Source of the DNA: a virus
Length of the DNA: 29,351 nt
Reading direction: 5' to 3' (one strand)
Virus genome (UHGV): UHGV-0299584
Of this stretch, positions 1 through 6,570 are shown piece by piece. Made by a program: the position numbers and the translations under genes. The notes below the pieces were generated by a model. The model was not told the DNA's origin. It searched no databases and worked only from the letters and a program-made list of their open reading frames with translations. The stretch's first letter is position 1, and each line of letters starts with the position of its first letter.

Positions 1-59
1 AAGGTCTCATGACTCGTCGTGAGATTGAGCGTGAAATCTGTTTGTGGGGTCAGCAATGA
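1..59 (+). CDS. Endolysin, 3' end only (partial; reading frame begins at nt 3)
   Basis: Open frame entering the window translates ...[18 protein letters not shown] and stops at TGA 57-59, overlapping the Rz ATG (ATGA). Assignment rests on position immediately upstream of Rz/Rz1. Confidence 0.45.
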
Positions 60-523
60 ACAGAGTAACCGCGATTATCTCCGCTCTGGTTATCTGCATC
101 ATCGTCTGCCTGTCATGGGCTGTTAATCATTACCGTGATAATGCAATCGCCTACAAAGAACAGCGCGATAACAAGGCCAGTGAACTGGAGAAGGCGAACG
201 CCACCATTACTGACATGCAGCAGCGCCAGCGTGATGCTGATGCACTCGATGATAAATACACGAAGGAGTTAGCTGATGCGAAAGCTGAAAATGATGCTCT
301 TCGGCGCAAGCTTGATAATGGTGGTCGGGTGCTCGTCAAAGGAAAATGCCCTGTGCCATCCTCAGCCGAAACCTCCAGCGCCTCCGGCATGGGCAATGAT
401 GCCACCGTCGAACTCTCTCCAGTTGCTGGACGAAACGTTCTCGGTATCCGGGACGGAATTATCCGCGACCAAACAGCATTGAGAACGCTTCAGGAATACA
501 TCAGGACGCAATGCCTTCGATGA
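56..523 (+). CDS. Rz: Rz-type i-spanin (inner-membrane spanin)
   Basis: Protein [31 protein letters not shown]... has an N-terminal transmembrane segment then a coiled-coil periplasmic domain, closely resembling lambda Rz as recalled. ATG at 56 preferred over the GTG at 44 used by the ORF track. Rz1 is embedded in the +1 frame. Confidence 0.85.
276..482 (+). CDS. Rz1: Rz1-type o-spanin (outer-membrane lipoprotein), embedded in Rz
   Basis: +1-frame ORF wholly inside Rz. Product [21 protein letters not shown]... has a signal peptide with lipobox (VVGC) followed by a proline-rich segment ([11 protein letters not shown]), as in lambda Rz1. Confidence 0.75.
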
Positions 524-870: not shown

Positions 871-1413
871 ATGAACTACCCAACCGTTGTTAACGATATA
901 GATTTCAGAGACCTAATTTTTGTAGCAAACAACGATCCGGTTACAGATTCTTTTATGGTGGCAAAAGCATTTGGAAAGCTGCCGAAGAACGTAGTCCGTG
1001 ACATTGAGCGAACCATAGAAGCTTGCCCTCCTGAGTTTGATACAAAGCTCAACTTTGAGCTTTGCTATAAAAACAATGAGTTACAGAATGGTAAGCCGCA
1101 AAAATTCTACCGTCTCCGCAAGGATGGGTTGATGCTTTTGGTTATGTCCTACACCAAAAAAGAAGCAATGCGTATCAAAATTGCTTACATCAACGCATTT
1201 AACTGGATGTACGCCATGCTTCAGGTTGGTCATCGTCAATTTGAAGAAGAGAGAAATGCCGTAATGCTGGAGTACATGAAAGAGAAGGATGTTGCCAGCA
1301 TGTCAGGCCGCCTGCTTAATCGCTGGGGAAAAATTAAGAAGCCTCAGCTACTGGCGAGAATTGAACGCCTTGAACAGCACGGGCAAACCGTAATCCCCGG
1401 ACTCACCAATTAA
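871..1413 (+). CDS. rha: Rha-family phage regulatory protein
   Basis: 180-aa ORF with RBS AAAGG at 856-860. Product matches my recollection of the Rha family, and the position between lysis cassette and terminase is where rha sits in P22-like phages. Confidence 0.65.
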   Translation: MNYPTVVNDIDFRDLIFVANNDPVTDSFMVAKAFGKLPKNVVRDIERTIEACPPEFDTKLNFELCYKNNELQNGKPQKFYRLRKDGLMLLVMSYTKKEAMRIKIAYINAFNWMYAMLQVGHRQFEEERNAVMLEYMKEKDVASMSGRLLNRWGKIKKPQLLARIERLEQHGQTVIPGLTN

Positions 1414-1632
1414 CGGCAGTACAGCGAAACAACCCAAGCCAGAAAGTGGGGAAATAACACTGGCAGCCACTGAAAGATGAACCTCCTGCCTTATGGCAAA
1501 AAAGATTCTTTGTGGTGGCGGACTGATGGAAAGACATCGGATAGAATAAAACAGTGGCTAGGGTAGCTCCCGAAAAGCGGAATCGTCACCGCCAGCCACT
1601 GAATCTATGACGAACAACTAGACGAGGTTGTG

Positions 1633-1848
1633 ATGGATGATAACGGAAACCAATGGATCAATGTTGAACACCGGCTACCAGAAAGCAAAGAAGGGATGTG
1701 GTCTAAAGAGGTTATAGCTCTTACTGATACTGGTGACGTGTTCAAACTATCATGTATGGGCTCTTACTGGCAGAGAACCAAGGCATTCATCGATTCAGGA
1801 GCAAGCAAGGTTACACACTGGATGCCGCTTAATTACCCAGATGATTAA
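1633..1848 (+). CDS. Small DUF551-like protein
   Basis: GAGG RBS 6 nt upstream of ATG 1633. Motifs WINVEHRLPE and VTHWMPLNYP are shared with the C-terminal domain of the 336-aa early-left protein (WISCSERMPD, VTHWREMPAAP). Confidence 0.55.
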   Translation: MDDNGNQWINVEHRLPESKEGMWSKEVIALTDTGDVFKLSCMGSYWQRTKAFIDSGASKVTHWMPLNYPDD

Positions 1849-1866
1849 AACGGATGAAAAATGAAA

Positions 1867-1888
1867 GGTCGCTCAGGCGGCCTTTTTT
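1867..1888 (+). terminator. Intrinsic terminator
   Basis: GGTCGC-tcag-GCGGCC hairpin (6 bp, one G.U) followed by TTTTTT. Confidence 0.55.
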
Positions 1889-1995
1889 ATTGCCATCACA
1901 AAAGCCATTCCCTACAGAGTGGCTTTGATAATGGCTTATACCCTACACGGGATAACTTAACTGATATCCCTTTTAACGGATAAACGGAGCCAACA

Positions 1996-2238
1996 ATGGC
2001 AGAGATTATTCCCATGACTGAAGAACAGAAATTCCAGTTAGAGATTTACAAGCTGGTCATGAACCAGAACGCAGCCGCAGAAGAAGCATTTCAATTCATT
2101 GGCACTGACGAACTGAAGCTTGAGCTATTCAAAATTCACTTCCAGTCAGGTGGCGCTAATTCAGATATCACGACCCGCACTATCGAAGCGGTGCGTAAAT
2201 CGAAGGAAGCGTTAGACCTGTTCACTACCGGAGCATGA
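1996..2238 (+). CDS. Hypothetical small protein (80 aa) upstream of terminase
   Basis: ATG with GGAG RBS at 1986-1989; no recognisable motif. Confidence 0.5.
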   Translation: MAEIIPMTEEQKFQLEIYKLVMNQNAAAEEAFQFIGTDELKLELFKIHFQSGGANSDITTRTIEAVRKSKEALDLFTTGA

Positions 2239-2239
2239 T

Positions 2240-2431
2240 GTGAGCCGCGTAATCAATTTGGGTAAGGAGAAGAAATTCCCAATTACTCAAGAGCTATACG
2301 AGCGGCTGGAAAGCGTCATCCATGATTATGGTGAAATCAGTGTATGTGAGGCGATTGGCACACTCGAATTGCTGAAGCAGTCATTGATTGAAAGCATGAA
2401 GAGCCAACGACCAGAAATGACAACTAAGTGA
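2240..2431 (+). CDS. Hypothetical small protein (63 aa), coupled to the preceding ORF and to terS
   Basis: GTG start 2 nt after the previous stop, GGAG 8 nt upstream; its stop lies 1 nt before the terS ATG. Confidence 0.45.
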
Positions 2432-2432
2432 G

Positions 2433-2927
2433 ATGAATATGGCAGCACCAAAGGGCAACCGATTTTGGGAGGCCCGCAGTAGTCATGGGCGAAATCCTAA
2501 ATTCGAATCGCCTGAGGCGCTGTGGGCTGCTTGTTGTGAATACTTCGAGTGGGCTGATGATAACCCGCTATGGGAGGGTAAGGTATTTTCATATCAGGGA
2601 GAAATAATTAAGGCTAATGTCCCTAAGATGCGAGCCATGACTATTTCAGGATTGTGTACCTTCCTTGATATCACCAGGCAAACATGGGGAACCTTCCGGT
2701 CAATGGAAGGTTTTTCTGACGTCACATCACGAGCGGAAGACATCATCTACGACCAGAAATTCTCTGGTGCAGCCGCTGACCTTCTCAACGCTAACATCAT
2801 CGCCCGTGATTTGGGCCTCAAAGAGCAGTCGCAAGTTGAAGACGTGACACCTGATAAGGGAGATCGCGATAAGCGACGCTCTCGTATCAAGGAGCTATTC
2901 AACCGTGGAACTGGACGCGATTCTTGA
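2433..2927 (+). CDS. terS: Terminase small subunit (P22 gp3-like)
   Basis: 164-aa product [40 protein letters not shown]... closely matches P22 gp3 as recalled; overlaps the terL start by 23 nt. Confidence 0.85.
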
Positions 2928-4404
2928 TAACCTGAGCGACGAAGAGCAAATCGAATTGCTCGAGCTACTCGAAGAAGAAGAAAACTACCGGAACACACAC
3001 CTGCTATATGAATTTACGCCATACAGCAAACAGCGTGAGTTCATCGACGCCGGACATGACTATCCAGAGCGATGTTTTATGGCTGGTAACCAGCTTGGTA
3101 AGTCATTTACTGGTGCTGCTGAAGTCGCGTTTCACCTTACAGGGCGTTATCCGGGCACAAAAGGCTATCCTGCTGATGGTAAATATGGTGGGGAGTGGAA
3201 AGGTAAGCGTTTCTATGAGCCTGTTGTCTTCTGGATTGGTGGCGAGACAAACGAGACGGTAACCAAAACGACTCAACGCATCCTGTGCGGTCGTATCGAA
3301 GAGAATGATGAGCCAGGCTACGGTTCCATACCTAAAGAAGACATCATTAGCTGGAAGAAGTCTCCTTTCTTTCCGAACCTTGTTGATCATCTTCTGGTTA
3401 AGCATCACACGGCTGATGGCGTTGAAGATGGCATTTCAATCTGCTACTTCAAACCATACTCGCAAGGCCGCGCTCGCTGGCAGGGTGACACAATCCACGG
3501 CGTGTGGTTTGACGAAGAGCCACCATACAGCATTTATGGCGAAGGTCTTACCCGTACCAACAAATACGGGCAATTCTCAATTCTGACGTTTACCCCGCTG
3601 ATGGGGATGTCTGACGTTGTTACCAAGTTCCTGAAGAATCCAAGCAAGTCGCAGAAAGTGGTCAACATGACCATCTATGACGCTGAGCACTACACCGACG
3701 AGCAGAAAGAGCAAATCATCGCATCCTATCCTGAGCATGAGAGAGAGGCGCGTGCTCGCGGTATTCCTACGATGGGTAGTGGTCGAATCTTCCAGATACC
3801 GGAAGAGACGATTAAGTGTCAGCCGTTCGAGTGTCCTGATCACTTCTACGTAATTGGCGGGATGGATTTCGGATGGGATCACCCGCAGGCGCAGGTTCAG
3901 CTTTGGTGGGATAAGGACGCAGACACAATCTACGTTTCACGCGTGTGGAAGGCGAAAGAAAAAACAGCGGTTCAGGCATGGGGAGCTGTTAAATCATGGG
4001 CGCATAAAGTGCCAACCGCATGGCCTCATGACGGAAACCAGCATGAGAAGGGCGGCGGTGAGCAGCTCAAAGGGCAGTATGCAGACGCTGGATTTATGAT
4101 GTTACAGGAGCATGCGACATGGCCTGATGGCGGTAATGCTGTTGAGCCTGGCATCACTGAATTGCGCGACATGATGCTCGATGGTCGCTTCAAAGTATTC
4201 AACACCTGTGAGCCATTCTTTGAGGAGTTCCGCCTCTATCACCGTGATGAAAACGGGAAAATCGTCAAGCTTAACGACGACGTTCTCTCAGCCGTTCGCT
4301 ATGCATACATGATGCGCCGCTTTGCCAAAATGATGCGCGATATCAAAAAACCAAAAGAGAAAAAGATACCAGCCCCAATCAGGCCCATCGCACGGAGAAC
4401 TTAA
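2905..4404 (+). CDS. terL: Terminase large subunit (P22 gp2-like)
   Basis: 499 aa, the same length as P22 gp2 and near-identical by recollection; GTG start. Confidence 0.93.
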
Positions 4405-6570
4405 ATGGCCGACGAAAACAGACTCAATTCCATTCTGTGCAAGTTTGACGCGGACTGGATGGCGAGCGATGAAGCCAGAACCGAGGCGACAAATGACCTG
4501 TATTTTAGCCGAGTGTCGCAATGGGATGACTGGCTATCAAACTACACCACCCTGCAATATCGCGGACAATTCGATGTTGTTCGCCCGGTGGTCAGGAAAC
4601 TGGTCGCAGAGATGCGTCGGAACCCTATCGACGTTCTATTCAGACCCAAAGACGGCGCTAATCCTGATGCAGCCGATGTGTTGATGGGGATGTATCGTAC
4701 TGATATGCGCCATAACACGGCAAAGATTGCCGTTAACGTTGGCGTTCGTGAGCAGATAGAGTCCGGCGTTGGTGCATGGCGTCTGGTCACACAGTACGAA
4801 GACAACGACCCAACAAGCAACAATCAGGTAATCCGACGCCTTCCAATCCATGAAGCCTGCTCACACGTCATATGGGACGCAAACAGCAAGCAGATGGATA
4901 AGAGCGACGCTAAGCACTGCACGGTGATTAACGCCTTGTCGCGCAATGGCTGGAAAGAGTTCGCAGAGGATTACGGTATTGATCCTGACACCCTGCCATC
5001 TTTCCAGAATCCGAACGACACATGGCTGTTTCCGTGGGTATCGAATGATGTCGTCTACGTCGCTGAGTATTACGAGGTAGAAGAGAAGAAGGAGAAAGTC
5101 TTCATCTACCGCGACCCGTTGACAGGTGAGCCAGTCAGCTATTACCAGCAGGATATTAAAGACGTTATCGACGACCTGGCTAATCGTGGATTCATTAAGG
5201 TAGCAGAGCGCAAGGTGAAGCGTCGTCGTGTGTATAAGTCGATCATCACCTGCACGCAGATACTGAAAGACCGAGAAAAGATAGCCGGAGAGCATATCCC
5301 AATCGTTCCAGTGTATGGAGAATGGTCATTCGCTGGTGACAAGGAGTGCTACGAGGGAGTGGTAAGGCTGACGAAAGACGGTCAACGCCTTCGTAACATG
5401 ATCATGTCGTTCAACGCCGATATTGTTGCTCGTTCACCGAAGAAGAAACCGACCTTCTTCCCTGAGCAAATCGAAGGCTACGAATACATGTACGGTGGAA
5501 ATGATGACTATCCGTACTATCTGCAGAACAGGACCGATGAAAACGGTAACGACCTGCCGATTGGTCCAATCTCCTACATGGAAAACCCTGAAGTGCCGCA
5601 AGCCAACGCTTACATGCTTGAGGCTGCCACCAACGCAGTGAAAGAGGTGGCTAGTCTTGGCGTGGATGCGCAGGCAGCAAACTCTCAGGTCGCTTTCGAT
5701 ACTGTCAATCAACTGAACATGCGAGCAGACCTTGAGACATATGTGTTTCAGGATAACCTGGCTACCGCAATGCGACGTGATGGCGAGATTTATGCCTCAA
5801 TGGTCAACGATATTTATGACGTTCCTCGTCATGTAACGCTGACACTTGAAGATGGTAGCGAGAAAGACGTTCAACTATACGCGCAAGTTGTAGATTACCA
5901 GTCCGGTAATGTGGTCACGCTCAACGACATTCGCGGTCGCTATGAGTGCTATACAGACGTTGGACCATCCTTCCAGAGTATGAAGGAACAGAACCGCGCA
6001 GAGATTCAGGAGTTGCTCACCAAGGTTCCGCAAGGTACTCCAGAGTTCCAGATGCTGATGCTGCAATACTTCACGCTGCTTGACGGTAAAGGCGTCGAGA
6101 TGATGCGAGAGTACGCGAACAAGCAACTGGTGATGATGGGGCTGAAGAAACCAGAAACACCTGAAGAGATGGAGATGGTACAGCAGGCTCAACAGCAGCC
6201 GCAGCAGCCATCAGCAGAGCAAATTCAGGCGCAGGGTATCCTTCTGCAAGGTCAGGCTGAATTGCTCAAGGCAGAGAACCAACAGGCGCAGATTCAGGTT
6301 GAAGCCGCCAAGGTTGAAGCCCAAAACCAACTCAACGCCGCGAAGATTGCGGAAATCTTCAACAATATGGACCTCGACAAACAGGCAGAACTGCGTGAGT
6401 ACCTCAAGCTCGTAGGTCAATTCCAGCAACAGCGCAGCAAAGATGCTCGTGCTAACGCTGAGCTGCTTCTTAAAGATGCAGACCAGACTCATTCACAACG
6501 CATGGATTTCGCGAATCTTATGCGTCAAGTTCAAATCCCCTCCGGCGGAGTAGCCGAGACACCTCAATAA
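4405..6570 (+). CDS. Portal protein (P22 gp1-like)
   Basis: 721 aa; N-terminus [18 protein letters not shown]... and Q/A-rich C-terminal barrel region match the P22 portal as recalled. GGAG RBS; ATG abuts the terL stop. Confidence 0.95.

Follow-up and report, generated by a model that had tools for sequence, protein, structure and literature searches.

Two coupled small genes ahead of terS in a P22-like phage genome are homologues of P22 orf80 and orf59c

Directly upstream of the small terminase gene (terS) in the virus genome UHGV-0299584 lie two small open reading frames of 80 and 63 aa, and this arrangement raises the question of whether they form a functional unit, such as a toxin-antitoxin (TA) pair or packaging accessory proteins, both of which had been proposed in a preliminary description of this DNA, or genes of another kind. 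We analyzed the segment from 1996 to 2431 in the context of the window, i.e., the whole 29,351-nt stretch of UHGV-0299584, and the two ORFs, referred to below as ORF1 and ORF2, were found exactly at the coordinates and with the lengths first described.

Gene layout and homologues of ORF1 and ORF2

As summarized in Table 1, the first 6.5 kb of the window reads, at the sequence level, like a late region from a P22-like phage (Lederbergvirus), and a mosaic junction with upstream sequence of the P22/ST64T type lies at ~1982.

Table 1. Features around the ORF1-ORF2 segment of the window
Feature	Position	Strand	Remarks
Rz with embedded Rz1	44-523		
Rha-like gene	871-1413		
DUF551 gene	1630-1848		
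Intrinsic-terminator-like hairpin	1863-1888	+	AAAGGTCGC-TCAG-GCGGCCTTT followed by a T run; 10-bp stem; directly after the DUF551 gene
Hairpin A	1892-1935	+	Core stem 1901-1910/1917-1926 (AAAGCCATTC/GAGTGGCTTT), loop 1911-1916
Hairpin B	1949-1974	+	GGGATA 1949-1954/TATCCC 1965-1970, 10-nt loop, then TTTT 1971-1974
Shine-Dalgarno GGAG of ORF1	1986-1989	+	6 nt before ATG 1996
ORF1, 80 aa	1996-2238	+	ATG 1996, TGA 2236-2238; DUF2560, phrog_571
Shine-Dalgarno GGAG of ORF2	2230-2233	+	Within the last codons of ORF1, 6 nt before GTG 2240
ORF2, 63 aa	2240-2431	+	GTG 2240, TGA 2429-2431; phrog_3546
terS, P22 gp3 type, GP3_package, 162 aa	2439-2927	+	N-terminus MAAPKG, the annotated P22/ST64T gp3 start
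terL	2905-4404		
Portal gene	4405-6570		

The single nucleotide reported between ORF1 and ORF2 was confirmed, and this junction is kept in P22, HK620, Sf6, and Gally as well as in all 15 viral contigs in which ORF2 immediately follows ORF1. The reported spacing of 1 nt between ORF2 and terS is obtained if the first in-frame ATG (2433) is taken as the start, but not for the start of P22 gp3 (2439), which is preceded by GAG 6 nt upstream and leaves a gap of 7 nt. The corresponding gap is 23 nt in P22 and HK620, both of which have an ORF2 allele of 59 aa whose tail differs. A tight ORF2-terS coupling is therefore not conserved, and from the three-gene coupling originally suggested, the ORF1-ORF2 geometry stands as conserved, whereas the spacing between ORF2 and terS varies.

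ORF1 matched the Pfam family DUF2560 (PF10834) over the entire profile (positions 1 to 72 of 72; E = 1.1e-43), and its score of 147.7 bits is far above the curated gathering threshold of 25 bits; it also matched phrog_571 (E = 2.3e-41). ORF2 matched phrog_3546 (E = 1.7e-38; profile positions 1 to 58 of 59), while no Pfam family was found for ORF2 or for 73 of its relatives. The amino acid identity to the counterparts in P22, Sf6, and HK620 was 98.8 to 100% for ORF1 and 91 to 97% for ORF2, and the DNA of the two genes together was 94 to 98% identical to Sf6 67/68, HK620 hkbM/hkbN, and P22 orf80/orf59c. By these similarities, ORF1 is evidently the homologue of P22 Orf80, Sf6 gp67, and HK620 HkbM, and ORF2 that of P22 Orf59c, Sf6 gp68, and HK620 HkbN. 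The "ORF80" of the Stx phage Sp5 was rejected as a homologue, being an unrelated protein of 2,793 aa.

These profile searches, which had been suggested as a check, together with the gene order shared with P22, Sf6, and HK620 (ORF2 being optional elsewhere), bore out the fallback proposal of the preliminary description, namely, that the pair are conserved P22-like ORFs of unknown role. They are thus already known and ordinary genes of the P22 family, catalogued as orf80/orf59c, 67/68, and hkbM/hkbN, with functions uncharacterized in the literature searched, which yielded no functional study of DUF2560, orf59c, or hkbM/hkbN. DUF2560 is a family of Enterobacterales phages and prophages for which we found no assigned function or solved structure, and ORF1 shows no feature that sets it apart from this family.

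Comparison of ORF1 with six to eight relatives gave 3 to 8 synonymous versus 0 to 2 nonsynonymous differences (pN/pS, 0 to 0.07), and the pN/pS values of ORF2 versus its relatives were 0.13 to 0.54. These values and the strong family matches of both ORFs indicated that they are genuine coding genes under purifying selection. ORF1 encodes an acidic protein (pI 4.7) predicted to form a four-helix bundle (pLDDT, 83.7), and DUF2560 relatives with 36 to 44% identity retain its length and predicted helices. An acidic four-helix bundle of this kind, devoid of DNA-binding character, would most likely work through protein binding.

Predicted fold of ORF2 and the relation between the two genes

The single-chain model of ORF2 consists of one or more beta-strands and two helices and resembles ribbon-helix-helix (RHH) proteins. 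A strand leads directly into the two helices, the model is similar to solved RHH structures, and many RHH antitoxins, such as TacA, ParD, CopA, KacA, and MazE, are found among its best structural hits. The G-x-S/T/N turn that starts helix 2 in RHH proteins has a counterpart in the window's ORF2 (G31-E-I-S34), and the consensus of the family, EYxGxxSL, is compatible with the G-x-S/T turn of RHH proteins. The net charge of residues 1 to 16 is +3, and the remainder of the protein is acidic. No link to RHH proteins was detected at the level of sequences or profiles in Pfam, no PDB sequence matched the ORF2 profile, and hhalign comparisons with Arc and CopG gave probabilities of 3.9% and 0.1%, respectively; the window itself holds no Arc- or Mnt-like gene for comparison. 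An invariant Glu10 and a Pro14 occupy outward-facing (putative DNA-facing) positions of the strand, which counts against a canonical RHH protein, and the domain is C-terminal in multidomain relatives (including a 158-aa variant encoded between DUF2560 and terS), a position unusual for RHH domains. Taken together, ORF2 probably adopts an RHH-like fold, as judged from one monomer model of moderate confidence, and DNA binding, as suggested by this predicted fold, is a tentative proposition to which we assign somewhat less than even odds.

ORF2 belongs to a large family, since profile searching revealed at least 165 clusters (50% identity) of relatives, most of which are free-standing proteins of 53 to 67 aa. 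All 74 relatives sampled matched phrog_3546; a 2,149-aa repeat protein among the matches (P0163) was discounted as repeat driven. When distant relatives were searched against cultured phages by tblastn, only the P22-like set was returned. Elsewhere, a Providencia phage encodes a distant relative between the gene for the replication helicase and Q, and others lie directly after NinG, in an ea/int region, and among the early genes of other phages. One of them lies in a nin-like stretch, immediately ahead of a methyltransferase gene and three genes downstream of the gene for a Gad2-like protein (anti-Gabija family). No DUF2560 gene was a neighbor of those distant relatives whose context was seen.

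ORF1 and ORF2 are likewise unequally distributed among phages, as 178 phage records had a tblastn match to ORF1 and 44 had one to ORF2. We then gathered 120 viral contigs through a conserved motif upstream of ORF1, and 65 of these contained full-length ORF1. ORF1 was followed straight by terS in ~37 of the 65, and ORF2 was present in 19, the others having unrelated small genes; ORF1 thus occurs without ORF2 in most phages, even at 100% amino acid identity. Examples of such alternative arrangements are g341c and ST64T, where ORF1 precedes orf129 and orf134 (gp3 comes next in ST64T, and the g341c record stops there), and a Klebsiella phage in which ORF1 is followed by genes for a DUF551 protein and an HNH endonuclease. 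The space between ORF1 and terS, occupied by ORF2, by unrelated small genes, or by nothing, is therefore a variable accessory slot.

The terS gene itself belonged to one of three unrelated types, i.e., GP3_package, Sf6_terminase, and a 146-aa helix-turn-helix (HTH) type, the last of which directly follows ORF1 in vB_EcoP-683R2, where it is misannotated as HNH. ORF2 was both present and absent with the P22-type and with the Sf6-type terS. Five contigs had terS of the window's type directly after ORF1, and in one of these (L025), a terS identical to that of the window was found with ORF2 cleanly absent, ~25 nt of the ORF2 3′ end being left. ORF1 heads the packaging modules of P22-like phages of Salmonella, Escherichia coli, Shigella, Klebsiella, and Proteus, and whatever the terS type that follows, it forms the conserved left edge of the module in P22-like phages. 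By their occurrence in the genomes compared, ORF1 and ORF2 appear as separate, independent accessory genes and not as one unit.

These data bear directly on the proposed TA pair. If this were a type II system, ORF2 would be the RHH antitoxin and ORF1 the toxin, a reading suggested by two small, translationally coupled genes and by a predicted ORF2 fold that many antitoxins use. However, ORF1 is an acidic helical bundle matching no toxin family, and neither ORF had a match to a toxin, antitoxin, or defense family in Pfam, NCBIfam, or PADLOC. Only 5 to 13 residues extend beyond helix 2 of ORF2, too few for a toxin-binding tail; ORF1 mostly occurs without ORF2, as do the relatives of ORF2 without ORF1; no autonomous promoter or conserved operator was found; and the search for ORF2 relatives retrieved no plasmid copies. 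We rejected the TA proposal for want of a toxin family, of joint inheritance, and of a promoter or operator, and we consider its probability negligible.

The other proposal, packaging accessory proteins, fared no better in its strict form. Covariation with the terS type, by which a terminase accessory would be recognized, was shown by neither ORF, ORF1 preceding three unrelated types and ORF2 being optional beside an identical terS. Nor are the genes required for packaging or plaque formation, since natural genomes lack ORF2 and, according to the literature, P22 from which orf25 to orf80 had been removed gave viable phage (PMC11016777), ORF1 being dispensable in P22. A deletion of orf59c itself was not found in the literature searched. 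These results indicated that the pair are neither a TA system nor obligatory cofactors of TerS.

It is conceivable that ORF1 and/or ORF2 bind TerS or pac-region DNA as nonessential modulators, tuning the initiation of headful packaging with respect to efficiency, pac choice, or transduction. P22-type small terminases have weak sequence specificity in vitro, and this was counted in favor of such modulators, along with the position of the genes next to and upstream of terS, in the same operon and closely spaced, the marked sequence conservation of ORF1 together with its constant position at the head of packaging modules, and a predicted ORF2 fold of a DNA-binding type. Against this stand the three unrelated terS families behind ORF1, the optional occurrence of ORF2 beside the same terS, even one identical to that of the window, the location of ORF2 relatives far from terminase genes in other phages, the viability of orf80 deletions, and the varying spacing between ORF2 and terS. 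We therefore regard packaging modulation as quite unlikely.

The hairpin element upstream of ORF1

The sequence from 1850 to 2000 is predicted to fold into an unusually stable RNA (z = −4.5) with three structures (Table 1), the first of which, the terminator-like hairpin, was not listed by a simple terminator scan. Hairpin A, which has an optional outer stem (GCCAT/ATGGC), was compared among 48 distinct versions from viral contigs and was found to occur with three stem alleles, AAAGCCAYTC/GAGTGGCTTT, GAGRCCATTC/GAGTGGTCTC, and AAGYCYATC/GGTGGGCTT, in all of which pairing is kept. Among 20 representatives, 99% of the cells were paired, compared with 43 to 49% when the partner was slid, and 4 of the 10 pairs had changed on both sides in a compensatory manner. 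U-G wobbles in the stem place the structure on the plus-strand RNA. Hairpin B was invariant in the sampled loci, an observation that is silent on covariation since the search pattern included its left arm, and the T run behind it is replaced in a few loci. Hairpin B could act as a weak terminator or form a 5′ structure in the mRNA of the packaging genes.

Two repeats in this region had been put forward as marks of a promoter or operator. Both are present, the 8-bp inverted repeat at 1902-1909/1930-1937 and the direct repeat CCCTACA at 1910-1916/1941-1947, but neither is conserved in relatives. The AAGCCATT arm of the inverted repeat is replaced in two of the three hairpin A alleles; the first CCCTACA copy is the variable loop of hairpin A, and two copies per window are at chance level, being reached in 48 of 100 shuffles. 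Furthermore, no sigma-70-like promoter was found in 1850-1995, and the conserved part of the region is a hairpin of the RNA type. The promoter or operator assignment was accordingly dropped.

The intergenic element is widespread. It was present in at least 106 phage records, including HK97, HK022, Stx2 phages, CUS-3, and epsilon34, and 54 of the 120 contigs had it in front of other genes, e.g., a P27-like terS or a lambda-type Nu1/A lying ~1.3 kb away. Part of a 591-nt query was matched by 2,563 of 5,426 complete E. coli genomes (~47%), only 140 of which matched at least 80% of it; most matched only ~1879-1984 of the window. Matches in Stx2 phages were rejected as homologues of the ORFs, as they come from the intergenic element, and its occurrence in many phages devoid of both ORFs shows that the element is not tied to ORF1 or ORF2. 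Its terminal GGAG serves as the ribosome-binding site (RBS) of whichever gene comes first, including terS in loci lacking ORF1. Rfam contained no family for the element, the only match being a chance miRNA hit (E = 0.98).

The stretch 1892-1989, comprising hairpin A, hairpin B, and the RBS, may be a conserved cis-acting RNA that heads lambdoid packaging modules, and it might act on the terminase message, controlling how it is processed or translated or how stable it is. As a candidate alternative, the element would delimit the moron region that precedes it, and hairpin B would then serve as a weak terminator. We think it rather improbable that the locus holds two undescribed entities, a cis-acting RNA at 1892-1989 and, in phrog_3546, a divergent RHH-like family of phage regulators or counter-defense proteins.

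The position of the RBS within this element also suggests a different role for the ORFs, in which they would serve as leader ORFs. Ribosomes loaded at 1986-1996 would be passed on by coupling, setting the level of TerS and protecting the mRNA, and the peptides would be secondary. Consistent with this, a widespread element that serves the first gene of the packaging module includes the RBS and start region, the ORF1-ORF2 coupling geometry is conserved, and in HK022-like phages the initial 82 nt of ORF1 are retained as a 45-codon ORF (phrog_23132) overlapping the start of an HNH gene. However, the strong amino acid conservation of ORF1 (0 to 2 nonsynonymous versus 3 to 8 synonymous differences) and the retention of length and predicted helices in relatives at 36 to 44% identity argue for a functional protein, and many phages begin terS at this RBS without any leader ORF. 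A leader function is therefore very unlikely.

Likely roles and known systems

The observations are best explained, with a probability of roughly 0.6, by two separate, nonessential accessory genes located where the lysis/moron region meets the packaging genes, expressed late and coupled, with an RHH-like ORF2 and a protein-binding ORF1. Neither gene would have a promoter of its own, and both would be transcribed late within the single late operon. P22-like late operons have been described to possess a single promoter and intra-operon terminators (bioRxiv 10.1101/2020.10.05.325894), which, together with the absence of a sigma-70-like site upstream, makes late expression most likely. Antiterminated polymerase would read through the hairpins at 1863-1888 and 1949-1974, and ORF2 would be translated by coupling to ORF1, given its Shine-Dalgarno sequence inside ORF1 and the succession of stop codon, 1 nt, and GTG. 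The ORF2 product is most likely a small RHH-like dimer whose basic N-terminal strand region would interact with nucleic acid or perhaps with a partner protein, and it would act as a regulator or modulator and not as a part of the terminase.

Next in likelihood, though itself unlikely, comes a counter-defense or host-modulating reading, in which one or both proteins neutralize a host function, for instance, immunity that senses or blocks the terminase or packaging, and are needed in particular natural hosts only. Such a role would reconcile dispensability in the laboratory with strong purifying selection, as orf80 is dispensable in P22 and yet has a pN/pS of ~0. It is also in line with the location of the genes in a variable accessory slot, with the small and acidic nature of both proteins, and with the distant ORF2 relatives in accessory-rich nin-like and early regions, one of them near the Gad2-like gene. 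On the other hand, neither protein is homologous to any characterized anti-defense protein, and late expression would be an odd timing unless the target acts on packaging. The absence of a PADLOC match is uninformative here, as PADLOC holds models of defense and not of anti-defense.

For annotation, the practical gain is that the two genes can be labeled as homologues of orf80 and orf59c rather than as a TA module or a terminase subunit. The new annotations are modest and consist of an RHH-like fold for the Orf59c family and a covarying hairpin element upstream. If the fold prediction is true, the widespread and unnamed phrog_3546 would acquire a fold, together with an activity that can be tested in a model phage with easy genetics. 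The hairpin element marks where lambdoid phages swap packaging modules and supplies the RBS of the first gene, and it could thus bear on mosaic recombination and on the control of terminase expression.

Among known systems, P22 orf80/orf59c, Sf6 67/68, and HK620 hkbM/hkbN are the same genes in the same order, with the same 1-nt junction and the same location between the lysis/moron region and gene 3. The window differs from P22 in having the 63-aa ORF2 allele of Sf6, with a different C-terminal tail and one Asp fewer, and combines this allele with a P22-type terS; its sequence upstream of ORF1 is likewise of the Sf6/Gally type and not of the P22 type.

With regard to RHH proteins (the CopG/Arc/MetJ group, P22 Arc and Mnt, TacA/ParD/CopA, and plasmid omega and ParG), ORF2 shares no sequence or profile similarity with them. 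It differs further in an extra N-terminal strand in the prediction, in the Glu and Pro of the putative DNA-facing strand, in the C-terminal position of the domain in fused relatives, and in that no promoter or operator of its own was found.

The closest parallel to the slot is provided by the morons and variable slots of lambdoid late operons, such as the "ant moron" and P22 pid, the latter between orf25 and orf80, which likewise have variable content between conserved neighbors and which, like ORF1 and ORF2, are dispensable and play no role in lysis or morphogenesis (PMC2629481; PMC3573128). A classical moron, however, has a promoter and a terminator of its own and is often expressed in the prophage state, whereas ORF1 and ORF2, for which no promoter was found, are coupled into the late operon.

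Intergenic element and mosaic junction

The packaging genes of the window are preceded by an unannotated intergenic element (see the table), which is common to P22-like, HK97/HK022-like and Stx2 phages, is found in roughly half of the complete E. coli genomes, and in every case lies ahead of the packaging region. Hairpin A of this element, its upstream stem-loop, displays compensatory changes, and the element matched no family in Rfam. Comparison of the window (1917-2077) with HK022 (1422-1582) revealed 161 nt at 95.7% identity, also present in HK022-like siphophages, which consists of the intergenic element and the first 82 nt of ORF1, the DUF2560 gene. Since the sequences diverge beyond these 82 nt, the truncated start of ORF1 in HK022-like siphophages forms a 45-codon ORF (phrog_23132), which overlaps the start of an HNH endonuclease gene. 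Thus, a mosaic junction is located inside ORF1, where the window and HK022-like sequences part.

Features in the window and in related loci (L-numbers)
Feature	Location	Remarks
Rz1 o-spanin lipoprotein ORF	window 276-482	typical; embedded, +1 frame inside Rz (44-523)
Rha-like regulator	window 871-1413	Phage_pRha + ORF11CD3
DUF551 protein	window 1630-1848	
Intergenic element	window 1892-1989	hairpin A, hairpin B, RBS
Further copies of the element	L005 (HK022) 1422-1500; L019-L138	
ST64T orf-129	L002 2747-3136	HExxH motif; follows DUF2560, ORF2 absent
Proteus phage Brookers gp77	L007 2786-3145	HExxH motif; follows DUF2560, ORF2 absent
Gene annotated 'HNH homing endonuclease'	L003 (vB_EcoP-683R2) 2746-3186	directly upstream of terL
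Gad2-like (anti-Gabija family) and ParB_N/N6_N4 methyltransferase gene neighbourhood	L139 3053-3637 and 4285-5517	

Variable space between ORF1 and the terminase genes

The genes occupying this space in ST64T and Brookers had no match in Pfam, and their HExxH motifs (LVHECAHV and VSHESVHA, respectively) suggest a small metallopeptidase-like protein. Other contigs without ORF2 (L024, L034 and similar ones) carry an ORF1-terS spacer of 79 nt, which holds a 23-codon mini-ORF (MATQGFDNPSKFRDEWDKQAEGK) common to contigs with different terS types. As for the vB_EcoP-683R2 gene annotated as a homing endonuclease, it occupies the terS position and its product gave a weak Terminase_5 match; it more likely encodes a small terminase of the HTH type (146 aa), a type that comes after ORF1 in 15 viral contigs.

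Partners and neighbours of ORF2

Where ORF2 is present, it can be accompanied by an unrelated 95-aa ORF, either separate or fused (L017 4001-4477, encoding P0303; L045; P0024). The separate form precedes ORF2 by 9 nt in some contigs, and the fused form is a 158-aa protein found in five protein clusters. One Logan contig encodes a 140-aa ORF1-ORF2 fusion, which looks like the result of a 1-nt deletion. At locus L139, a distant ORF2 relative was found three genes downstream of the Gad2-like gene; this relative is followed immediately by the methyltransferase gene and is placed ahead of terL. Such surroundings possibly hint at an anti-defence neighbourhood.

Rha-like and DUF551 genes

In a Klebsiella phage (L004), a DUF551 gene is situated between the DUF2560 and HNH genes. 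The place filled in the window by the Rha-like and DUF551 genes is taken in P22 by rha, orf25 and the pid locus.
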